Of a stretch of DNA of 31,240 nt, positions 10,542 to 26,898 are shown one piece after another; position 1 is the stretch's first letter; every line of letters begins with the position of its first letter. The stretch comes from Desulfotomaculum sp. (GTDB lineage: Bacteria > Bacillota > Desulfotomaculia > Desulfotomaculales > Desulfohalotomaculaceae). Under the pieces are notes generated by a model. The model made no database searches and was not told where the DNA came from. It was given only the letters and a program-made list of their open reading frames with translations. The DNA lies in assembly GCA_021129815.1 (NCBI GenBank), contig JAJOKN010000115.1, positions 1 through 31,240 on the forward strand, in the 5' to 3' direction. The position numbers and the translations under genes are program-made.

Positions 10542-10916
10542 CCCAAGAGTACAGCGGGCAGTCGCTGCCTTTGCTGTTGGAGGCAAAGGTAGAGGAAAGT
10601 CGAGACGCACACAATTCCTTTTTAAGGAGTTGTAGTATGGAGCCCAGTGCAAGCTGGGGCAGGGCGACCTGACGACGGCGAAAAAAACTCCTAAAGACGG
10701 AGTTTTGAGTAGCCATAAAGTGCCACAGAAACCAGGTCATCGGGCGACCGATGAGTGCAAGGGTAAACTCCTCCAGTGCGCAACCCAAATAGGCGAAAGG
10801 CTTTTTAGCCGATCGCGGGTAGGGGCGCCCCTTAAAAAGGGGAAGGGAATTATGTTTGGTTCTCTTAGATAGATGACTGCCCTCGACAGAATCTCGCTTA
10901 CAGCTGTGCTCTTGGG
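10542..10916 (+). ncRNA. rnpB: RNase P RNA with B-type-like S-domain and extra A-like P16/P17 elements
   Basis: P1 CCCAAGAGTACAGC/GCTGTGCTCTTGGG; P2 GGGCAGTC/GACTGCCC; GAGGAAAGTC...ACAGAA...GCTTA P4 flanks; AGTGCCACAG, GGTAAAC, CAACCCAAAT and AGATAGATGACTG conserved blocks. Confidence 0.92.
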
Positions 10917-14329: not shown

Positions 14330-14365
14330 CCTTGTCATACATAAAATGTATGACAAGGTTTTTTT
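14330..14365 (+). terminator. Rho-independent terminator after rpsI
   Basis: 13-bp stem CCTTGTCATACAT/ATGTATGACAAGG plus T7. Confidence 0.88.
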
Positions 14366-14466: not shown

Positions 14467-14810
14467 ATGTTTATATGTCTTAACTTGGTTGGCTTTAAAA
14501 AATACTGTTTATTGTTGGCTATAATATTTATTTTAATATTGTTGAAGTTTATATGGATAATGAATAAAGCAGAAATAGAAATTGATAATTCTGATTGGTA
14601 AATACCAATCGTTTGGCAAAAGCGGCAGATTATTATATAACGCGAAATGCGAGAACTACAGCAGTGATAATAATAGAAGTTAGTTTTTTAAGCAATCCAA
14701 AAGAGGAAAAATTATTGAAGGATTCTGATTACAGAACTAAATTAGCTTTTAGTATTTATAAAGGGATAGTTAAATATTACAACAATTTATCAAAAGGAAC
14801 AAGCGCTTAG
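14467..14810 (+). pseudogene. cwlD: Internally deleted N-acetylmuramoyl-L-alanine amidase (CwlD-like)
   Basis: 44-codon N-terminal membrane anchor (14467-14601, ends SDW-stop) abuts, in another frame, an Amidase_3 C-terminus (14595-14810, AVIIIEVSFLSNPKEEKLL...IYKGI); the DPGHGG catalytic segment is absent; cwlD commonly follows rpsI. Confidence 0.75.
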
Positions 14811-15062
14811 GTTATGATTATGTGTATTTGGCAACTTATTTTTGCGTTTCAAAGATATAACATTGATTTTTATAAAAAAGGGTAATACAATTAAATGTTA
14901 TAACTAGCATTGCATTGCAAATAGACTAAGTTTGAAACTTTTAGAATATTTAAAATTAAATCTTGTTATAGGTATAGAAATGTGCTAGCATATTTAATAA
15001 CAATAATGTATAATATAAAAATTAAATGTATATTGTACAAGCGATACAAAGGGGTTGAAAAA

Positions 15063-15266
15063 ATGTACCTTGTTGCAGCGGTAGATGATACTAAATGCAT
15101 GGGCTGTATTGGCTGTAAAATATGTATAAAAACCTGTCCAGAAGCAAATGCAACTAAGTTTATGACACCTAAAAAAAAGGTGGCTATTAATCCTATGCGT
15201 TGTAAGGGATGTGGCTTGTGCGTGGATGTATGTCCTATGAAGTGTATTACTCTAAACAGCATTTAG
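15063..15266 (+). CDS. 2x[4Fe-4S] ferredoxin (67 aa)
   Basis: CIGCKICIKTCP and CKGCGLCVDVCP motifs; ATG 15063 after AGGGG. Confidence 0.9.
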   Translation: MYLVAAVDDTKCMGCIGCKICIKTCPEANATKFMTPKKKVAINPMRCKGCGLCVDVCPMKCITLNSI

Positions 15267-15324
15267 ATGCATTTTGTTACTTAATGTTGAATTAAATAAA
15301 TATACTTGGAAGGAGCGAGCAGCT

Positions 15325-16698
15325 TTGCTTAAAATAACTGACGATGAATTTATCGAAGTGATAGGAACGCGTGCTGAGCGTGCTAAAGCATTAAAGCCCT
15401 GTCCAATAGGCAGTGAAGGAGCGTGCTGTCGTACCTGTTATGTTGGGCCGTGTCGCTTTGTAGGCAAAAATGCTGAAGAGGAAGTACGGGGTGTATGTGC
15501 ATCTACTTTGGGAGTAGTAGCATCGCGTCAATTCTTAACTATGTGTGCCAGTGGCTCTGCTATTCATGCTGCTAGAGCTCGCGAGTCAATTGACAAGCTT
15601 TTAGAAGCAGCTGAAAATGAGCGGAGAATATATGATAAAGCAAAACTAAATGCTGTTGCAGATTTGATCGGAGTTGGTAGTGCCAAAAAAACAAAGACAA
15701 AACTTGCAAAGCAAATTGCAGATGAGTATTTAAGCTGGTTTTACAAATATCCTTCCACAGTTTTAAATCAGCTCCCTTCAAAACGTTTAAATATCTGGAA
15801 AGAATGTGATCTGTTGCCTAGAGGAATCGATAGAGAGATTGCGGAATCTACATACAATGCTAGTGTTGGCGTTAATTACGATGTTGAAGATATCATGATG
15901 CAGGCTGCAAGGGTTTCAATAGCTAATGGCTGGTTTTCAAGCGCTATTGTAGCAGATATAGAAGATATTACGGAAAACTCAACAACTCTATATGATTCAA
16001 AACTTTCGGGAATAGCTGAAAATTATTGGAACAAGATGGTAGGGGGCTATGGAAAAGCTCCATCTTTAAATATATTGGGTGAACTCATTTTTTCTGGGGA
16101 CATCAGAGGAATTGCATGTTTGATAGACTGTGATCATCCGAGATATGAGGAATCGAGCAGTCAGAGATTTATATCATTAGAACTCATAAAGAATGATATA
16201 CTGGTTGTAACTGGAGGCTGTAATAACACTCTGGAAAATGCAGGATTATTATCTCCGGATACTGTAATGCAGGTAGCGGGAAGAAAACTTAAGAAAGTTT
16301 ATGAAAACACTGGAATTCCTCCTGTAATTTCATTAGGTGGCTGTATAAGCCATTCACGTATCCTGAATGTATTATCCGCACTGGTTAAAGAAAATGCAAT
16401 AGATAATGTAGACGACATAAATGGTTTGCCGTGTGTTATTTTGGCACCTCATTGGTTTAGCGGAACAGCTATTTCTATTGGCTGTTTTTATGCTGTTTCT
16501 GGAGTGGAAACGATATTTGGAGGCAAGTCTCTTACGCATGCGAGCAAGGAAGTTACACAAATACTAGAAAGCACATGGAAACAGAAATTTGGGGCGAGTT
16601 TTAGGTTTGTGGATAATGCTATCGATATGGTAGAAGCAGTTTTAGATCATATGGATGCTGTAAGGAAAAATTCTGGACTTGTATCGTATTATCCTTAA
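15325..16698 (+). CDS. CooS (Ni-CODH)-like protein, shortened (about 457 aa), predicted not to oxidise CO
   Basis: PCPIGSEGACCRTCYVGPCR...GVC D/B-cluster motif; GDIRGIACLIDC, ELIKNDILVVTGGC, PPVISLGGC...SRIL C-terminal blocks; TTG 15325 lies 9 nt after AAGGAG (track start 15274). Confidence 0.85.
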   Translation: MLKITDDEFIEVIGTRAERAKALKPCPIGSEGACCRTCYVGPCRFVGKNAEEEVRGVCASTLGVVASRQFLTMCASGSAIHAARARESIDKLLEAAENERRIYDKAKLNAVADLIGVGSAKKTKTKLAKQIADEYLSWFYKYPSTVLNQLPSKRLNIWKECDLLPRGIDREIAESTYNASVGVNYDVEDIMMQAARVSIANGWFSSAIVADIEDITENSTTLYDSKLSGIAENYWNKMVGGYGKAPSLNILGELIFSGDIRGIACLIDCDHPRYEESSSQRFISLELIKNDILVVTGGCNNTLENAGLLSPDTVMQVAGRKLKKVYENTGIPPVISLGGCISHSRILNVLSALVKENAIDNVDDINGLPCVILAPHWFSGTAISIGCFYAVSGVETIFGGKSLTHASKEVTQILESTWKQKFGASFRFVDNAIDMVEAVLDHMDAVRKNSGLVSYYP

Positions 16699-16727
16699 AA
16701 GAGTAATAGAAAGATGAGGGATGCATT

Positions 16728-18677
16728 GTGACGAGGTTAACCAGTGTCAACGACTTGATAGAATTGAAAAAATCTTTAGTTGGTGAGCGAGTGGATCCAG
16801 ATGGTACAAAGAGACAGTCTTTGTGGGTTTGCTGTGGTACTGCTTGTCGTGCAGGCGGTTCAGTTGAACTAGCTGACAAACTTCAGGAAGAGGCAAAAAA
16901 TAATAACATTCCAGTAGATGTCATTAAAACTGGCTGTTTAGGGATGTGTCAAAAAGGTCCTCTTATTAAGACAATGCCTGATGGTTACTTGTATCAAAAA
17001 GTGAAAACCAAGCACACCGCAAAGATAATAGATTATACAGCTAAGTCGGGTTTTGCTGTTCGCGAGTTGTTTTATCGCATAGATGATCTGGATTATTACT
17101 ATAAAAGGGACATATTCAGCGGACCAAAGGAAAAAATAGAAGACCTGCCTTTTTATCAAAAACAGCTTCGTTTAATCCTTGAAGGAAATGAAAGAGTAGC
17201 ACCGGAAAATATACATTATTACATAGCACAGGGCGGATATGAAGCATTAGCAAAGATTTTATCTGAAAAATGGGAACCTGAAAAAGTGATAGACGAAATA
17301 ACGAAATCTGGCCTTAGAGGACGTGGTGGAGCAGGATTTCCCACAGGGATTAAATGGAAAGCCACCAGGCAGGCGAAAGGAGAAGTAAAGGTAATAGTAG
17401 CAAACGGGGATGAAGGCGACCCGGGAGCGTTCATGGACAGATCCATAATGGAGGGGAATCCTCACTGTTTGTTAGAGGGCATGCTCATTGCGGGGTATGC
17501 AGTAGGAGCAAATTATGGTTTTATATATGTAAGGCATGAGTATCCTTTAGCGCTTAAAAACATAAGTATAGCTATTCAGCAGGTAAAAGAGCTTGGGCTG
17601 ATAGGCAAGAATATTTTGGGTTCGGGTTTTGATTTTGATATTTCTATACGTGAAGGCGCAGGCGCGTTTGTGTGTGGAGAGGAAACTGCGCTTTTGGTTT
17701 CTATTGAAGGGAAAAGAGGATTTCCAAGTCCTAAGCCTCCGTTTCCGGCAGAAAGCGGTGTATGGGCATTTCCAACATGTATCAACAACATAGAAACGCT
17801 CGCTAACGTGCCTTATATAGTAAAGCACGGTGCTGAAAAATTTAGTTCTATTGGAACGGAAAATAGCAAAGGCACCAAGGTTTTTGCATTGGCAGGAAAG
17901 ATCAAGAATACCGGGCTTATAGAAGTGCCTATGGGCATAACGCTTAGAGAGATAATATATGACATTGGCGGAGGAATAAAAGATGGAAAACGCTTAAAAG
18001 CTGTACAGGTAGGCGGTCCATCTGGCGGCTGCATACCTGCAGATTTAATAGACGTAGAGGTGGACTTTGATTCTTTGTCTTCAGTAGGTGCGATAATGGG
18101 ATCAGGCGGCATAATCGTGCTCGATGAGGACGACTGTATGGTGAGCATAGCAAAGTACTTTTTGGAATTTATCAAGGAAGAATCCTGCGGCAAGTGTCCG
18201 CCTTGTAGGATAGGCAGCTATCAAATGCTTGAAATACTCACACGCATAACTGAAGGGAAAGGTGAAATGGAAGATATAGATAGGCTGGAAAACTTAGCTA
18301 AGAGCATGCAGGTGAGCGCTCTATGTGGATTGGGGAAAACTGCTCCAAATCCAGTATTATCCACTATGAGATACTTTAGAGATGAATATGAAGAACACAT
18401 TAAACACAAATACTGCAGGGCTAAGAGCTGTCGCATTAACACTTATAAAATTGATAACGATGAGTGCTTTTTGTGTGGTTTGTGTAAGAAAGTTTGTCCT
18501 GCAGATGCTGTTATAGATGCTGGGGACCAATACATTATAGATCAGGAAAAATGCATAAAGTGCAAAGCTTGTTATGATGCATGTCCGATAGATGTAATTA
18601 AATCTCTAGGCAGCGGTGAAGAGACTATAGATAAAAGTACAATAAATTTAAAAGGGGAACTGCGCGATGGAGCATAA
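16728..18677 (+). CDS. HydB/NuoF (BfuB)-like NADH/FMN-binding Fe-S subunit
   Basis: N-terminal thioredoxin-like [2Fe-2S] (CCGTAC...GCLGMC), RGRGGAGFPTG, NGDEGDPGAFMDR, GGPSGGC, ESCGKCPPCR...LCGLG, C-terminal 2x[4Fe-4S]. Confidence 0.92.
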   Translation: MTRLTSVNDLIELKKSLVGERVDPDGTKRQSLWVCCGTACRAGGSVELADKLQEEAKNNNIPVDVIKTGCLGMCQKGPLIKTMPDGYLYQKVKTKHTAKIIDYTAKSGFAVRELFYRIDDLDYYYKRDIFSGPKEKIEDLPFYQKQLRLILEGNERVAPENIHYYIAQGGYEALAKILSEKWEPEKVIDEITKSGLRGRGGAGFPTGIKWKATRQAKGEVKVIVANGDEGDPGAFMDRSIMEGNPHCLLEGMLIAGYAVGANYGFIYVRHEYPLALKNISIAIQQVKELGLIGKNILGSGFDFDISIREGAGAFVCGEETALLVSIEGKRGFPSPKPPFPAESGVWAFPTCINNIETLANVPYIVKHGAEKFSSIGTENSKGTKVFALAGKIKNTGLIEVPMGITLREIIYDIGGGIKDGKRLKAVQVGGPSGGCIPADLIDVEVDFDSLSSVGAIMGSGGIIVLDEDDCMVSIAKYFLEFIKEESCGKCPPCRIGSYQMLEILTRITEGKGEMEDIDRLENLAKSMQVSALCGLGKTAPNPVLSTMRYFRDEYEEHIKHKYCRAKSCRINTYKIDNDECFLCGLCKKVCPADAVIDAGDQYIIDQEKCIKCKACYDACPIDVIKSLGSGEETIDKSTINLKGELRDGA

Positions 18678-20598
18678 AGTTACGTTAACTATTGATGGAA
18701 AAGAAGTTTGTGTACCAGAAGGAACAAATGTGCTTGAAGCAGCGCGCACAGCAGGCATAGAGATACCGACTTTGTGTTACTTGAAGGATTTTTTAGGCTT
18801 TGGTGCGTGTAGGATTTGCTTGGTTGAAATAGAAGGGTTTCGTGCACCTGTTACTGCCTGTACCACTATAGCTAAAGATGGCATGAAGGTTACAACTAAT
18901 TCCCCTAGACTACAACAGGAGCGCAAGTTTGTGTTGGATTTGATATTTTCAATGCACCCTCCAGAATGCGGCAGGTGTCCAAAGCTCGGAGTGTGTGACT
19001 TGAGAAAGATAGCTAGTAAGAACAAAGTAGCCAAGTCGAGTTTTGGATATACTGAAATCGGTCATACAGTAGATGATCCTAATCCATTTATATATCGAGA
19101 TACCAGATACTGCATATTGTGTGGAAAATGCGTGAGGATATGTCAAGGACAGGGAACTAGCGTGCTTGCATTTTTAGGCCGTGGAGTTAAAATGACGGTT
19201 AGCACTCCTAACAATGCACTTCTTAAAGATAGCGGGTGTACATTTTGTGGCAGCTGTGTGGAAGTGTGTCCGGTAAATGCGCTTTCTGAAAAACCTAAGA
19301 TAGGCAAAGGACGTGAAAGCAAGTATAAAAGATTTGAGTGTGTGTGCTTAGAGTGCGGAAATGCTTGCGACACAATAGTTTCAGTTTATCAAAATGAAGT
19401 TGTAAAAGTAAATGCTAAAGTCAAAGACGATGTACACGGCTATTTGTGCGCGGTGGGACGCTTTGGCTTTACTTTAGATAGAGGAAAGCGCATAACTGCT
19501 CCAATGAAGCGCAAAGGCTTGGATTTTGAAGAAATAACATGGGACGAGGCTATAAGCACTATTGCTGAAAGAATAAAGGGCAGCAGCATGTTGTTATCTG
19601 CAAAGTTGTTAAATGAGGATATAATGACTGCAAAGGCTTTTGCAAAAGCTTTACAATTAGAGGATATTGCCTCAACGGTGGAGCTGTATTCAAGCTATAA
19701 TGCGATGAAGAGCAAGGCAGAAATCGATGATACTGATTTGATAATTGTGGTGGGCTTGAGTTTATCACAAAAGAAACGCTTATTCCCTGCGTTAGACTTT
19801 GATATAAGAAGAAAAGTGAGGTTGGGCTCAAAATTAATAGTGGTAAGTGGCGAAGATTTGGAGGTCAGTGCTGTAGCTGAATTTAAACTTATAGGAGATG
19901 TACGCAAACTTATAAATGAGCTTTTAGGCAAAGAAAGCAGCGAAGACAATAGCATTGCAGGTGCAAAAAAATTATATGAAAGTGCAAAGTCTCCTGTCAT
20001 AATATGCGAACCTTCGTATTATGATGAAATCGTTTGTGCAGCAGGCGAAAGTACAAAGTTAGTTGCAGTGCCATATGAATCAAATGCAAAAGGCGTTGCT
20101 GCTGTTATGAGCGATGTATTAGAAGATGGAAAGATAAAAGCAGTTGTTGAAAGCAGCAAAATGCTTTACGTAGTTGGTGAAGTATGGCCAAATATTGAGT
20201 TTAAATCAGATTTTATTGTGATGCAAAAGCCATACCTTGATGCACAAGCAGATAAAGCTGACTTGCTGCTCCCTGCACCTACAAGCTGGGAGATGGAAGG
20301 CAGCATAATTAATTTATTTGGAAGCTTGACAAAGCTGCAAAAGGCATTGGCTATGCCTGAAGGCGTAAAAACTTACAGTGAAGTGCTTCAAGAGATAGCA
20401 AAAGCTGTAAGTGTGGATATGGATCTTTCAAAGGATATAGAGGCAGCTATTGAAATAAAGGGTAAATATGAAAAGACTGACTTTAAAGGAATACTGCCGC
20501 TGTCAGAGCGAAAACTTCATATGGATGCGTTGAATGAACTGATAGATGATACAGTGGAAAAATTCAATGTTTTAGAAACTAAAAGCGAGGTGAGCTAA
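18667..20598 (+). CDS. HydA-N/NuoG/FdhF-like Fe-S subunit with a degenerate molybdopterin-oxidoreductase domain
   Basis: [2Fe-2S] PTLC...GACRIC...TAC; HxxxCxxCx5C; 2x[4Fe-4S]; CLECGNAC...LCAVGRFG; WDEA block; no H-cluster motifs. Confidence 0.88.
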   Translation: MEHKVTLTIDGKEVCVPEGTNVLEAARTAGIEIPTLCYLKDFLGFGACRICLVEIEGFRAPVTACTTIAKDGMKVTTNSPRLQQERKFVLDLIFSMHPPECGRCPKLGVCDLRKIASKNKVAKSSFGYTEIGHTVDDPNPFIYRDTRYCILCGKCVRICQGQGTSVLAFLGRGVKMTVSTPNNALLKDSGCTFCGSCVEVCPVNALSEKPKIGKGRESKYKRFECVCLECGNACDTIVSVYQNEVVKVNAKVKDDVHGYLCAVGRFGFTLDRGKRITAPMKRKGLDFEEITWDEAISTIAERIKGSSMLLSAKLLNEDIMTAKAFAKALQLEDIASTVELYSSYNAMKSKAEIDDTDLIIVVGLSLSQKKRLFPALDFDIRRKVRLGSKLIVVSGEDLEVSAVAEFKLIGDVRKLINELLGKESSEDNSIAGAKKLYESAKSPVIICEPSYYDEIVCAAGESTKLVAVPYESNAKGVAAVMSDVLEDGKIKAVVESSKMLYVVGEVWPNIEFKSDFIVMQKPYLDAQADKADLLLPAPTSWEMEGSIINLFGSLTKLQKALAMPEGVKTYSEVLQEIAKAVSVDMDLSKDIEAAIEIKGKYEKTDFKGILPLSERKLHMDALNELIDDTVEKFNVLETKSEVS

Positions 20599-20601
20599 AA
20601 A

Positions 20602-21072
20602 GTGGCAGATAAACTTACAGGAATTGATGAAGGAGTGCTCACAGAAGAACAGAAAAAAAGAGCGATGATCATACATTCACTCTTTGAAATACAAAAGGAG
20701 CACAACTATTTGCCTGAAGAAGAGCTGAAAAAACTGTCAGAAAAACTCAACATTCCTCTTGCTGACATATACAGCACAGCATCCTTTTATAAACAGTTCT
20801 ACTTACAGCCTCGTGGCAAAAATGTGGTATGCGTGTGTGTAGGGACTGCATGTCACGTAAATGGTGCGCCAGAAGTGTTGGAAGTGCTTGAAAATACATT
20901 TGGCATAAAAGCAGGTGAAACCGATAAAGACTTAAACGTCACTTTGGAAACTGTGGGCTGTGTGGGCTGCTGCGGCCTTGCGCCAGTTGTCACTTTAAAT
21001 GAAGAAGAAATCATAGGAGAAGTCACTAAGGAAAAAGCTCAAGAGCTAGCAGATAGAGTTTGGAATAAATAG
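20602..21072 (+). CDS. HydC/NuoE (BfuC)-like [2Fe-2S] subunit
   Basis: IQKEHNYLP, ASFYKQF, CVGTACH...GCVGCCGLAP; 156 aa. Confidence 0.92.
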   Translation: MADKLTGIDEGVLTEEQKKRAMIIHSLFEIQKEHNYLPEEELKKLSEKLNIPLADIYSTASFYKQFYLQPRGKNVVCVCVGTACHVNGAPEVLEVLENTFGIKAGETDKDLNVTLETVGCVGCCGLAPVVTLNEEEIIGEVTKEKAQELADRVWNK

Positions 21073-21587
21073 CTGGAAAACCAAAAGTTGTGCCTAATAC
21101 TGTTTTGGCTCGAGGTCATAGCAAGATTCTTAGCAAGGTTGATGCAATACCAGTTGTGTTAGATATAAAAAATGCCAAAGAGGATATAGATGTTGAGTTA
21201 CCTGTTTCAATAGGACATGAAAAAGTTGATCTGATACCTGATAGAGTGAGAGTTGTTTTATCTATAGACATAGGAGTGCCGTATAAGACTTTTGCAGTAG
21301 AGCCAAATGTCGCAGAGGAGCTTTTGGGTTATGAGCTGGAGATAAAAGTTGAGCCACCTGTTGTAAATGTGTATGCTCCGGAAAATGTGCTAAATGAACT
21401 GGAAAAGATATATACAGATTTAGACGATTTAATTAAAAATGTTGAAAATAAAGAGATTATAAAAACAGTGAGATTAAAAACACCATCAGGGACTTTGTTG
21501 TTAGAACCAGAAGAGGTGAGTGTTAGCATTAAGATTAAAAAATTAGAAAAGCTATCAGAAGTAGAAAATAAGGGGGAGGCGTTTTAA
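21069..21587 (+). pseudogene. cdaR: 5'-truncated YbbR/CdaR-domain gene (C-terminal repeats only)
   Basis: Two YbbR-like repeats (PKVVPNTVLARG...PDRVRV; EPPVVNVYAP...EPEEVSV); no membrane anchor; no SD before GTG 21090; frame bounded by TAA at 21066; directly upstream of glmM. Confidence 0.65.
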
Positions 21588-22928
21588 ATCGATAGGCTTT
21601 TTGGTACGGATGGTGTAAGAGGTGTAGCTAACAGAGACTTAACGGCGGAATTGGCTGTAAAGCTTGGAAGAGCAACAGCGATTTTTTTGGCTTCACAGAG
21701 TAAAAAGAAACACATAGTAATAGGACGGGATACCAGAATTTCAGGAGATATGTTGCAAGCAGCGGTATCTGCTGGGATTTGCTCTGCAGGTGTGGATGTA
21801 TATTTAGCGGGAGTTGTGCCTACTTCAGCTGTTGCTTTCTTGACTAAAAGTTTGGAAGCTGCTGGAGGAGTGGTTATATCTGCATCGCATAATCCTGTGG
21901 AGGATAACGGCATAAAGTTTTTTGATAACAGAGGATATAAACTGTCAGAGGCACAAGAACAGCGGATAGAAGCAATGTTAAGAGATGATTTTGTAGATTT
22001 ACCCATAGGAGATAAAGTGGGCAAAATCTACAAAATAGATAGCGCTGTCGATAAGTACGTTGATTACATTTGCAGTACAGTTGATGTGAGCTTAGATGGC
22101 TTAAAGGTTGTCGTTGACTGTGCAAATGGCGCTGCGCACAGCGCATCTCCTAAAGCGCTTGAGAAGCTTGGGGCGGAAGTTATGCCTATATTCAATGAAC
22201 CTGACGGTACGAATATAAACGTAAGATGCGGTTCAACGAATATCACGGCGCTGTGCAAAAAAGTAGTTGAACATTCAGCAGATATAGGCATTGCTCATGA
22301 TGGAGATGCTGACAGAGTACTTGCAGTTGATTCAAAGGGAAAGGTAGTCGATGGAGATAAAATAATGGCGATATGCGCAAAACATTTAAAGGACAAAGGA
22401 AAGCTGCCTTTAAATACTGTTGTGGCTACAGTGATGAGCAATCTTGGCTTTCATGAAGCGATGAAAAATTGTGAAATAAAAACTTTGACTACAAAGGTGG
22501 GGGATAGATACGTATTAGAAGAGATGATTAAGAGCGGTGCTAAGCTTGGTGGAGAACAGTCTGGGCACATTATATTTTTAGAACACAACACCACAGGAGA
22601 TGGGATATTGACTGCGGTGCAGCTTTTGTCGATTTTAAAAGAAACAGGGAGGACGATAGAAGAGCTTGCAGGTGAAATACCTGAATACCCACAAGTATTA
22701 AAAAATGTGCGTGTAAGCGATAAAAATAAAATTATGAACAGCGAAGAGTTAAAACTTGCAGTTGCCGAAATAAAGAGTTTTTTAAAAGGTGAAGGAAGGG
22801 TGCTGGTAAGGGCATCGGGAACAGAGCCGCTCATAAGAGTTATGGTAGAAGCAAAAGGTGCCGATAAATTAAAGTTTGCGATTGATGAGCTGGTAAGTGT
22901 AGTGGAAAGGATTGATAGAGAAAAATAA
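21588..22928 (+). CDS. glmM: Phosphoglucosamine mutase (446 aa if initiated at ATC 21588)
   Basis: In-frame RLFGTDGVRGVAN lies upstream of the track start; VISASHNP phosphoserine motif, DGDADR, GGEQSGH, VRASGTEP. Product certain, start unusual. Confidence 0.93.
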   Translation: MDRLFGTDGVRGVANRDLTAELAVKLGRATAIFLASQSKKKHIVIGRDTRISGDMLQAAVSAGICSAGVDVYLAGVVPTSAVAFLTKSLEAAGGVVISASHNPVEDNGIKFFDNRGYKLSEAQEQRIEAMLRDDFVDLPIGDKVGKIYKIDSAVDKYVDYICSTVDVSLDGLKVVVDCANGAAHSASPKALEKLGAEVMPIFNEPDGTNINVRCGSTNITALCKKVVEHSADIGIAHDGDADRVLAVDSKGKVVDGDKIMAICAKHLKDKGKLPLNTVVATVMSNLGFHEAMKNCEIKTLTTKVGDRYVLEEMIKSGAKLGGEQSGHIIFLEHNTTGDGILTAVQLLSILKETGRTIEELAGEIPEYPQVLKNVRVSDKNKIMNSEELKLAVAEIKSFLKGEGRVLVRASGTEPLIRVMVEAKGADKLKFAIDELVSVVERIDREK

Positions 22929-24578: not shown

Positions 24579-24735
24579 AAAACAGCAAACAAATAATCGT
24601 GTTGGGTTATTTACTTGGATTTAGCAATAACCAAGATTTTGATAGTCCATGTTAAAGCTATATTCGTAAGGAGGTGATGTCTTTTTATAGGCGAAAAGAT
24701 TTTAAACTTTGATTAACTAAATAATCATTTGAACT

Positions 24736-24888
24736 TCTTAAAGCGCCTGGACCTAGTTTTTTATAGAAAAACTAGGTTGACGAGGAGGAGGTTTATCGAA
24801 CGATCGGCGGATGCCTCCCGGTTGCTCACGACCGTTAACGATACCACAAAAACACAGGCAACTGTGCTACAAAAGGTATCAGGTGAGA
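24736..24888 (+). ncRNA. glmS ribozyme (GlcN6P-activated); predicted cleavage A24742/G24743
   Basis: AGCGCC, P1 ACCTAGTTTT/AAAACTAGGT, GACGAGG, TTTATCGA...TCGGCGGATGCC, P4 GATACC/GGTATC, P3.1 CTCAC/GTGAG; upstream of glmS. Confidence 0.95.
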
Positions 24889-25074
24889 TGAGTTGGTATT
24901 TGTGTTTTTAAGGAAGTAATAAGGGGTTTGTTTTTAAAGCATTTCACAATTTAAGGAAATACTGTAAAAGAATTAATAAAAACTGGTGTTAGTTTGTAAA
25001 AAAGTTATTTTAGTTTCAGAATTGATTGAAAAAAATTTTAATAGGTAAAAGAAAGGAGAGTTTAACTTTAAAAA

Positions 25075-26898
25075 ATGTGCGGGATAATTGGATATACAGG
25101 TAGGAGAGCTGCCGTTCCTATATTATTGGAAGGCTTGAGCCGTTTGGAATATCGTGGCTATGATTCAGCGGGGATTGTAGTGTACGAAGGTGATGAGCTA
25201 AAGCTTGTAAAGAAAGCAGGCAGAATATCTGTTTTAAAAGAGCTGTTGGAACATATAGATACAAATGCTAGTTTAGGCATAGGGCATACCAGGTGGGCTA
25301 CTCATGGCGCACCTTCAGATGTAAATGCTCATCCCCACACCGATGACAGCGGTTGCTTTGCAGTTGTTCACAATGGCATCATTGAAAACTACATGGAAAT
25401 CAAAGAATGGCTTTTAAAGAAAGGGCACAAATTTGTATCGGATACAGATACTGAAGTGCTGCCTCACTTAATCAAATATTATTACGATGGAGATTTGCTT
25501 GCTGCTGTAAAACGCGCAAAAAAGCAAATCGAAGGATCATATGCGATGGTGGTGCTTTCAAAGCATGAACCCAAGAGACTGGTTGCTGCAAGGCAGGACA
25601 GTCCATTGATACTGGGTGTGGGCGAGGGAGAGTATTTTGTAGCTTCAGATATACCTGCAATTTTAAAATACACCAGAAGCGCTGTGATAATAGATGATGG
25701 AGAAACCGTTGATATAACAGATGTGTATTTTAAAGTCTATAATGGAGCAGAGCTGGCAGTAAAAAAGCAGCTTTTTAATATCACATGGGAAGACAGCCGT
25801 GCAGAAAAAGCAGGTTACGATCACTTTATGTTGAAGGAGATTCATGAACAACCAAATGCTATCAAGGACACTGTTAGAGGACGCATAACCGATAATAGAG
25901 TTGTGCTAAAGGAACTTGAAGGTTTAGAAGATTTTATTAAAGGCTTACGCAGGATACACATAGTAGCATGCGGCACTGCTTATCATGCAGGTATGGTGGG
26001 CAAATACGCTATAGAATTGCTGGCAAGAATTCCTGTTGAGGTAGATATTGCATCTGAGTTCAGGTACAGAAATCCTATTGTAAGCAAAGGAGATCTTGTC
26101 ATTGTAATAAGCCAGTCGGGGGAAACTGCAGACACCTTGGCAGCGCTTAGGGAATCAAAGCGACTTGGAGCCAAGGTGCTGGCGGTAACCAATGTGGTGG
26201 GAAGTTCAGTCAGCCGTGAGGCAGATTATGTGATATACACATGGGCTGGACCTGAAATAGCAGTGGCTTCTACAAAGGCATTTACCACACAACTTGCAGT
26301 TATGTATATGATAGCGGTTTGGCTGTCGCAAAAGCTGGATACAATTGCTGAAGAACACAGGGCTGAAATTTTAAGAGAATTGAAGAGCATGCCGGAAAAA
26401 GCAGCTAAAGCGCTCAGAGCTGCTGATGATATAAAGAAAATAGCTGAAGCTTATGTGGATAAGAATAGCGTATTTTTTATAGGGCGCGGACAGGATAACG
26501 TCATTGCATCAGAAGGAGCACTTAAGCTCAAAGAAATATCTTATATTCATGCAGAAGCGTATGCTGCAGGAGAGCTAAAGCACGGAACTCTAGCGCTTAT
26601 CGAAGAAGGCGTTCCTGTGGTTGCGCTGGTTGCACAAAGGGATTTGGCTCAAAAGATGTACAGCAACATAAAAGAAGTAAAAGCAAGAGGGGCAAAAGTG
26701 CTGGCTGTAGCGCTTGAAGGAGATGAAATTGTGGAAAAGGAAGCAGATGAAGTGATATACATTCCTGACACACATTCCGTGCTTTCTTCCATCCTAACAG
26801 TTATACCGCTTCAACTGCTTGCATACTACGTGAGCGTGCTGAAAGGATGCGATGTGGATAAGCCTAGAAACTTAGCTAAAAGCGTGACGGTGGAGTGA
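25075..26898 (+). CDS. glmS: Glutamine-fructose-6-phosphate transaminase
   Basis: MCGIIG N-terminus, LEYRGYDSAG, GHTRWATHG, SQSGETADT, ELKHG, DKPRNLAKSVTVE. Confidence 0.98.
   Translation: MCGIIGYTGRRAAVPILLEGLSRLEYRGYDSAGIVVYEGDELKLVKKAGRISVLKELLEHIDTNASLGIGHTRWATHGAPSDVNAHPHTDDSGCFAVVHNGIIENYMEIKEWLLKKGHKFVSDTDTEVLPHLIKYYYDGDLLAAVKRAKKQIEGSYAMVVLSKHEPKRLVAARQDSPLILGVGEGEYFVASDIPAILKYTRSAVIIDDGETVDITDVYFKVYNGAELAVKKQLFNITWEDSRAEKAGYDHFMLKEIHEQPNAIKDTVRGRITDNRVVLKELEGLEDFIKGLRRIHIVACGTAYHAGMVGKYAIELLARIPVEVDIASEFRYRNPIVSKGDLVIVISQSGETADTLAALRESKRLGAKVLAVTNVVGSSVSREADYVIYTWAGPEIAVASTKAFTTQLAVMYMIAVWLSQKLDTIAEEHRAEILRELKSMPEKAAKALRAADDIKKIAEAYVDKNSVFFIGRGQDNVIASEGALKLKEISYIHAEAYAAGELKHGTLALIEEGVPVVALVAQRDLAQKMYSNIKEVKARGAKVLAVALEGDEIVEKEADEVIYIPDTHSVLSSILTVIPLQLLAYYVSVLKGCDVDKPRNLAKSVTVE

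Follow-up and report, generated by a model that had tools for sequence, protein, structure and literature searches.

The enzymes of the Bfu/HydABC family are modular, in that the catalytic heads differ while the bifurcating core joined to them is the same. For instance, in the NiFe-HydABCSL complex of Acetomicrobium mobile (PDB 7T2R/7T30), the add-on module is a NiFe hydrogenase (S and L subunits), and HydA has no catalytic cofactor but relays electrons through clusters A1-A5 from this module to the bifurcating BC core (PMC8880783). In the [FeFe]-hydrogenase HydABC, the A subunit has an H-cluster domain, and in the NAD-linked or Bfu formate dehydrogenases it has the Mo(W) ligand and the pterin domains. 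In addition, a class pairing the core with carbon monoxide dehydrogenase (CODH), called Codh-Bfu or CodhABCSF, was predicted solely on genomic grounds (Schut et al. 2022, PMC9304861; Feng et al. 2025, PMC12318220) and was never purified. Here, we describe a five-gene cassette at positions 15063-21072 of a 31,240-nt stretch of Desulfotomaculum sp. DNA (contig JAJOKN010000115.1; the whole stretch is called the window hereafter), in which a BfuABC core adjoins a small ferredoxin (Fd) and a truncated homolog of the CODH protein CooS/AcsA. The host genome (G000) is a metagenome-assembled genome (MAG) of 141 contigs and 1.19 Mb with 92.6% completeness, and it is found again in metagenomes of hydrothermal vents sampled by several studies.

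The open reading frames (ORFs) of the window showed that the five genes are co-oriented in the order Fd-CooS-BfuB-BfuA-BfuC, with an overlap of 11 nt between bfuB and bfuA and a gap of 3 nt between bfuA and bfuC. From the observed gene content, motifs, conservation, ancestry and genome inventory, we infer how the proteins would assemble, what the metal site would be, in which direction electrons would flow and what kind of third partner would be served. We tentatively propose, giving it a little under an even chance, that the five genes encode one cytoplasmic BfuABC-family enzyme with a CODH relic as its third branch and a non-CO partner. BfuB and BfuC would be the NAD(H)/FMN (flavin mononucleotide)/ferredoxin bifurcating core. 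The third branch would be the CODH relic, in which two copies of the truncated CooS probably pair across a D-cluster; the small basic 2[4Fe-4S] ferredoxin would serve it. This relic would come from the AcsA of a CODH/acetyl-CoA synthase (ACS)-linked Bfu complex and would have lost its catalytic Lys, its middle domain and the half of the C-cluster with Ni and the pendant Fe. An Fe-S cluster at the end of the third branch may sit in a remodelled, exposed Cys3(+His) site, and this site would exchange electrons with a non-CO partner, most likely a protein or an intermediate of sulfur metabolism. Thereby, the enzyme would interconvert NADH and low-potential ferredoxin in an H2-/sulfite-respiring cell lacking Rnf, Nuo and Ech.

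A preliminary description of this locus, made from the sequence alone, had read five packed genes in this order, a CooS homolog unable to build a normal C-cluster, an A subunit with neither an H-cluster nor a Mo ligand, and a cassette with no nickel-insertion (cooC/T/J), maturase or membrane genes. All of these readings held in our analysis, the last by a domain scan of the cassette. The description also proposed to look for the same five-gene set in other genomes, and we found it in three of four lineages and in two contexts. However, its term "new complex" was overstated, since the cassette descends from the CODH/ACS-linked Bfu class and its nearest block is found in Nitrospirota.

Two separate stretches of the CooS-like protein matched the CooS/AcsA model TIGR01702, one at model positions 10-252 and the other at about 418-621. 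The score was 253.7 bits against a curated cut-off of 478, about half, and the cut-off was not reached. The alignment with full-length CooS showed that the middle Rossmann domain, about 150 residues, was deleted as one clean block. The canonical Ni,Fe-CODHs (Carboxydothermus hydrogenoformans CODH-II, here ChCODH-II, 1SU8; D. vulgaris, 6B6V) share with this short CooS the N-terminal helical domain carrying the B- and D-cluster Cys and the C-terminal Rossmann domain, but the short CooS has no middle domain and has Thr in place of K563. Residue numbers of the short CooS follow the stored translation P0001, and 17 should be subtracted for the 457-aa (amino acid) protein. The D-cluster Cys (C43 and C51, C-x7-C) and the B-cluster Cys (C52, C55, C60 and C75) are retained and invariant in the short-CooS family. 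Since the D-cluster ligands are retained, a dimer is implied.

For the C-cluster, three of the six ligands are present (C286, C316 and C357, corresponding to C446, C476 and C526 of ChCODH-II), and the equivalents of H261, C295 and C333 are gone with the middle domain. The ligand numbering of ChCODH-II used here agrees with the mutant titles of PDB entries. The equivalent of Lys563 is Thr (T398), and the motif APEWMSEK becomes APHWFSGT. Meanwhile, the equivalent of H93 varies, being His in four sequences and Tyr in P0005, and this loss of invariance fits the loss of CODH chemistry. The AlphaFold2 model of the short CooS (predicted local distance difference test score, 88) aligned with CODH structures at a template modelling score of 0.82 by query and 0.62 by target; as modelled, the protein would be a CODH minus one domain. 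The residues above support that the short CooS could not build the canonical C-cluster. Because these losses take away the middle domain along with the catalytic Lys and half of the C-cluster ligands, CO/CO2 cannot be the third substrate.

Beside the old C-cluster ligands, three His (H288, H360 and H393) replace Asn, Asn and Glu, respectively. They are invariant only in the short-CooS family, in which C286, C316 and C357 are invariant as well. The phylogenetic tree showed that other domain-deleted CooS-like families arose independently. They also have no middle domain, but most of them have no B/D-cluster Cys and have degraded C-site Cys, and none of those examined adjoins a Bfu core. Thus, the independently truncated families let the C-site Cys decay and the short-CooS family kept them, which we count in favor of a third branch ending in this site. 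The domain-deleted proteins include P0099 (L051, 2294-3553), P0086, P0090, P0105, P0107, P0142, P0150, P0155 and P0163. Among them, P0099 is encoded in an acsD-X-acsB-acsC cluster, where its gene stands at X, the position of acsA between acsD and acsB.

Another short CooS homolog is the mini-CooS of Thermosinus carboxydivorans (428-482 aa). Techtmann et al. (2012, PMC3328121) reported that its B, C and D clusters have their full set of 11 Cys and the His and that small deletions at many places make it short, and it was placed in clade G (PMC8776680). The short CooS is set apart from it by this published description, because it has one clean domain deletion and has lost three C-cluster ligands, and so does not keep the full set of B-, C- and D-cluster ligands despite its shortness.

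BfuB has, by Pfam, the NuoF core with a thioredoxin-like 2Fe-2S domain on its N-terminal side and two 4Fe-4S motifs on its C-terminal side. It aligned end to end with the A. mobile NiFe-HydB (7t2r_B, 709 bits), its best solved relative, and also with the FeFe-HydB 7q4v_B. Its ligand sets are C36/40/70/74 for the N-terminal [2Fe-2S] cluster, C487/490/493/533 for the NuoF [4Fe-4S] cluster, C470, H557, C563 and C568 for a Cys3-His site, and C580-590 and C609-619 for the C-terminal [4Fe-4S] motifs. Compared with the B2 site of A. mobile, one of the four Cys is Thr (T508), leaving Cys3+His. The extra clusters of BfuB distinguish the bifurcating from the non-bifurcating homologs (PMC9304861, PMC8880783). 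By the definition of the Bfu/HydABC family (Schut 2022), BfuB has the NuoF core with the N-terminal 2Fe-2S, the two C-terminal 4Fe-4S and the Cys/His site near the flavin, and the [2Fe-2S] of BfuC and the N-terminal Fe-S "Y" clusters of BfuA are also present. By the same definition, NAD and ferredoxin would be reduced or oxidised in tight coupling with a third substrate.

BfuA includes Fer2_4, a His-ligated 4Fe-4S domain, two 4Fe-4S motifs and a short MopB-like domain (Pfam). Its five sites (C37/48/51/65; H97 with C101/104/110; C149-159; C191-201; and C227/230/234/261, the MopB-type [4Fe-4S]) were found, and motifs A1-A5 were invariant in an alignment of 54 sequences. The best solved relative is 7t2r_A, the NiFe-HydA. 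Unlike the A subunit of [FeFe]-hydrogenase HydABC, BfuA had no match to the H-cluster domain (Fe_hyd_lg_C/PF02906), and a hydrogenase model matched it only over the N-terminal 213 positions. Unlike the formate dehydrogenases, it had no pterin-binding C-terminal domain (Molydop_binding, PF01568), and the Sec/Cys Mo(W)-ligand motif of five related FdhA proteins aligned to a gap after residue 329. Because the H-cluster, the Mo-ligand motif and the pterin-binding domain are all absent, BfuA is predicted to be a connector, not a catalyst. The place of the NiFe hydrogenase module of A. mobile would be taken by the ferredoxin and the truncated CODH.

The ferredoxin contains two CxxCxxCxxxCP motifs (C15/18/21/25P and C47/50/53/57P) and a conserved extra Cys12. 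Its isoelectric point is 8.9, against 4.9-5.8 for the other four proteins of the cassette. It always lies directly upstream of the short CooS and is conserved in five loci at 85-49% identity, tracking the divergence of CooS.

To find orthologs, word-indexed and exhaustive profile (hidden Markov model) searches were carried out against 1.84 billion representatives. We found only a handful of short-CooS orthologs, all in one 50%-identity cluster. They form four lineages, which share the deletion of the middle domain at 50-98% identity with intact reading frames. The first lineage includes the window and P0002; the second includes L004 and probably also L053; the third includes L005 and L008 (GenBank JAJOKO010000065, "Desulfotomaculum sp. 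MAG-1580"); and the fourth, the most divergent, includes L006 and L007. The Fd-CooS pair was found in all four lineages, and the order Fd-CooS-B-A-C was kept in three of them, in two unrelated genomic contexts and at 58-76% CooS identity; the flanks of the L008 cassette are unrelated to those of the window. Since the same genes stand in the same order in L004, L005 and L008, the arrangement is not a matter of chance. A literature search found no paper describing the truncated CooS family or the five-gene cassette.

Furthermore, synonymous sites of the short CooS were saturated between lineages, and the ratio of nonsynonymous to synonymous substitution rates (dN/dS) was 0.09-0.13, comparable to BfuA and no faster. 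Thus, the short CooS is old and under purifying selection, and not a product of recent decay. It could be argued that the protein is a non-functional remnant of a lost CODH/ACS, heading for deletion in a shrinking genome, since the genome is small (1.19 Mb), the neighboring cdaA/ybbR region is eroded and CODH/ACS is absent from the genome. However, the frames are intact in four lineages with saturated synonymous sites and dN/dS about 0.1, the cluster ligands are invariant, and a reduced genome would be expected to purge a useless 1.4-kb gene. We therefore regard this explanation as highly improbable and close to refuted. The preliminary description had held that a full-length CooS in homologous clusters would make the short gene a case of recent decay. 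Such clusters do carry a full-length CooS, but the decay does not follow, because the truncation is old and conserved.

The nearest full-length CooS is the AcsA of Nitrospirota/Thermodesulfovibrionales, where blocks are ordered acsD-acsC-acsB-acsA-bfuC-bfuB-X-bfuA. The identities to this Nitrospirota block were higher than those to its acs-linked counterpart in the window's own order: 40-43% versus 32-35% for AcsA/CooS, 61% versus 44% for BfuC, 58% versus 48% for BfuB, and 44% versus 39% for BfuA. In the IQ-TREE phylogeny, the short-CooS family was monophyletic (100/100) with a long stem of 0.96 and grouped with the Nitrospirota AcsA (100/99). As all four large proteins are closest to a contiguous acsA-bfuC-bfuB-X-bfuA block, the linkage between CODH and Bfu predates the truncation of CooS, and the cassette is derived from the CODH/ACS-linked Bfu class. 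It was probably acquired horizontally. No ACS was found in the genomes searched of the window's own family, in which only two small genomes carry the cassette, namely G000 and G004 (about 1.6 Mb).

Like the Codh-Bfu blocks, the cassette has the BfuABC core with a catalytically empty BfuA beside a CooS-family protein and a small Fe-S protein. However, the Codh-Bfu class is defined by a complete Ni-Fe-S CooS and a CooF-type polyferredoxin, and the cassette has neither of them, nor CooC or ACS; cooC is present in the relative L046. The gene order also differs (Fd-CooS-B-A-C versus acsA-C-B-X-A in the Nitrospirota block), and a 67-aa ferredoxin stands where the Codh-Bfu blocks have CooF or the 190-200-aa Fe-S subunit X. 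A derivation of the ferredoxin from the 190-204-aa subunit X of the acs-bfu blocks could not be demonstrated, only generic Fer4 similarity being found. CODH/ACS operons with a complete bifurcating-type Bfu module were seen at L046 (G038:C23, 5926-17547), L017 and L054, from the window's own order and from Nitrospirota. Their genes run either cooC-bfuC-bfuB-small FeS "X"-bfuA-acsA-acsB-acsC or acsDCBA-bfuC-bfuB-X-bfuA. In addition, one Thermodesulfovibrionales contig carries two BfuB paralogs with CBS domains.

The shared ancestry bears on whether the cassette is one enzyme or two. Two separate systems could lie in one operon, with BfuABC working alone as an NADH:ferredoxin oxidoreductase or with a distant partner, and with Fd-CooS being unrelated, for example, a redox sensor or an Fe-S carrier. 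We consider this unlikely. In the P0005 lineage, Fd-CooS is not followed by B-A-C, and the genome has a cytoplasmic group-B FeFe hydrogenase elsewhere. Co-folding of CooS (40-474) with Fd and BfuA (89-586; shortened for a size of 1000 residues) also gave no interface signal (score 0.00), but this result bears on neither side and was counted neither way. However, BfuA has no catalytic site, and BfuABC alone would have no third substrate. Furthermore, the four large proteins have a common origin with a block whose CODH and Bfu genes were already contiguous, and the overlapping or near-abutting Fd-CooS-B-A-C genes were kept together at 58-76% CooS identity with different flanks.

We then ask which other enzymes the genome offers as partners. 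The following negatives refer to searches of the 92.6%-complete MAG. No full-length CooS or ACS (CdhC, CdhD), no NiFe hydrogenase large subunit and no Molydop_binding (PF01568) protein was found. There was also no Complex1_49kDa protein (NuoD/Ech large subunit), and hence the Q-module/membrane part of a complex I was missing, and no second Complex1_51K protein beside BfuB. RnfC carries the same domain as BfuB, and the rnfC models matched BfuB weakly; thus, no RnfC/Rnf was detected. The cassette therefore encodes the one NuoF-type NADH-linked Fe-S flavoenzyme that could be recognised in the cell. G000 includes DsrAB (G000:C15, 3-1978, L056, with dsrA cut by the contig end), a 2-oxoacid:ferredoxin oxidoreductase and a hybrid-cluster protein (hydroxylamine reductase; G000:C37, 493-3175, L029), which adjoins an Fnr/Crp-type regulator.

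Three FeFe hydrogenases were found. Two of them belong to group A (G000:C34, 5011-8595, L025; G000:C5, 7083-8669, L026) and are predicted to be extracytoplasmic because of their twin-arginine (Tat) signals and lipobox-like LTGC. Behind one of them are encoded a Fer4_11 protein and an NrfD-like membrane protein, and the other adjoins a ferritin and a flavodiiron protein. The third is a 481-aa cytoplasmic group-B enzyme with no linkage to the cassette. As partners of the cassette, the two Tat-exported lipoproteins were rejected, which leaves only the unlinked group-B enzyme.

This inventory weighs on the other proposal of the preliminary description, that the pseudo-CODH forms a heterodimer with a full-length, active CooS or connects Bfu to a hydrogenase, formate dehydrogenase or Nuo module elsewhere. 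The retained D-cluster Cys, which bridge the two CODH subunits, would suit a heterodimer. However, no full-length CooS was found in the 92.6%-complete genome or in G004, the other cassette-bearing genome of the family, and none of the ACS, NiFe, Mo/W or NuoD/Ech modules was found in G000. The group-A hydrogenases, being extracytoplasmic, would be out of reach. The proposal is therefore not supported by this evidence, and we consider it very unlikely.

The remodelled C-site could also be a new catalytic metal centre with a small molecule (a sulfur, nitrogen or oxygen species) as the third substrate; a new metal site was the second option of the preliminary description. Such a centre would agree with three C-cluster Cys and three adjacent new His that are invariant across 50%-identical orthologs, and neofunctionalisation is suggested by a tree in which the long stem leads to a conserved crown. 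In addition, a detectable relative, CooS-V (PDB 7b7q), offers a precedent as a CODH scaffold with a non-Ni cluster. However, half of the pocket is gone, the acid-base residues are lost (K563 equivalent) or variable (H93 equivalent), and the cassette has no maturation or insertion genes. Furthermore, a hybrid-cluster protein for hydroxylamine/NO is already encoded elsewhere, and the neighbors, which are ribosomal/cell-wall genes or unrelated genes, give no hint of a substrate. On balance, we doubt that the site is a new catalytic centre. Likewise, it seems improbable that a Cys3+His centre at the exposed half of the C-pocket is the third-substrate site for a sulfur reaction (e.g., with DsrC tri-/disulfide) or another non-CO substrate.

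Several points weigh against our proposal of a single enzyme with a CODH relic as its third branch. The link of the CooS relic and the ferredoxin to BfuA is drawn from gene order only, and the context points to no nameable third substrate. In L006/L007, Fd-CooS is followed by a convergent methyltransferase gene and not by B-A-C, on contigs shorter than 3 kb. In addition, the MAG is about 7% incomplete and lies in 141 contigs, and a partner scored as absent could be unassembled. Finally, a variable H93 equivalent shows no new chemistry by itself.

If the five proteins do form one complex, the cassette would amount to an experiment of nature in which a dead catalytic scaffold is put to new use; complex I did much the same with hydrogenase and molybdopterin folds. 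Here the head would be a CO dehydrogenase that was cut down and remodelled, yet long kept under selection, in a genome with neither CO metabolism nor another NuoF-type NADH enzyme. Such a complex would also point to a third redox partner, as yet unrecognised, through which vent-dwelling sulfate reducers run their energy metabolism. Should the Cys3+His centre prove true, the enzyme would be the central hub for NADH and ferredoxin in sulfate reducers that have reduced genomes and live in H2-rich vent fluids. Furthermore, the cassette adds evolutionary evidence for CODH and Bfu modules working together. Because the short CooS is small and has no Ni site, it should be tractable for expression, spectroscopy and cryo-electron microscopy.

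Table 1. Genes of the cassette and the hairpin upstream of it, in window coordinates
Feature	Position	Strand	Description
Intrinsic-terminator-like hairpin	14330-14358	+	Closes rplM-rpsI; 13-bp stem and T-run
Ferredoxin Fd	15063-15266	+	67 aa; basic 2x[4Fe-4S]; Pfam Fer4 families
Truncated CooS/AcsA homolog	15325-16698	+	457 aa from TTG 15325; stored P0001 474 aa; ORF open from 15274
BfuB/HydB	16728-18677	+	649 aa; NADH- and FMN-binding subunit, bifurcating type
BfuA	18667-20598	+	643 aa; NuoG/NiFe-HydA-like connector subunit (predicted); five Fe-S sites; cofactor-less MopB-like C-terminal domain
BfuC/HydC	20602-21072	+	NuoE-like [2Fe-2S] subunit; PF01257, 146 bits

The coordinates are given in Table 1. 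At its longest, the ORF of the CooS-like gene begins at TTG 15274, but TTG 15325 is the better-supported start. A ribosome-binding site, GGAAGGAG, lies at 15308-15315 ahead of it, and the orthologs begin at the equivalent "MLKITDDEF", which matches this codon. In addition, small indels between strains at 15297-15309 suggest that this stretch is non-coding. For these three reasons, the true start is likely TTG 15325.

The cassette is flanked upstream by rplM/rpsI and downstream by a ybbR remnant and glmM. It is a new transcription unit beginning after the strong terminator-like hairpin, and the terminator scan found no comparable terminator inside the cassette. The terminator is followed by a 700-nt AT-rich spacer (GC 0.31) with only weak promoter-like sites at 14533-14561 and 14863-14891. 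Contigs over the CooS-like gene, BfuB and BfuA were obtained from run X12, which is labelled metatranscriptomic but flagged "probably DNA"; the contigs are strandless and give no operon information. X12 was therefore discounted as evidence of co-transcription.

At the downstream end of the cassette (21061-21600), the YbbR of the window is a 165-aa remnant that begins 18 nt after bfuC. In the relatives L004 (15495-17296) and L053 (4369-5372), cdaA and a full-length 315-aa ybbR directly follow bfuC. Contigs of three vent metagenomes stop matching at about 21069, with different sequence beyond. Because of this divergence, the junction of the cdaA/ybbR deletion may be strain-variable, or it is possibly an assembly join. 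Elsewhere in the window, Rfam matches included the large signal recognition particle RNA (1438-1704) and the RNase P class B (10550-10905). A glmS ribozyme (Rfam; 24731-24891) was also found upstream of a 607-aa ORF at 25075-26898, which is presumably glmS.

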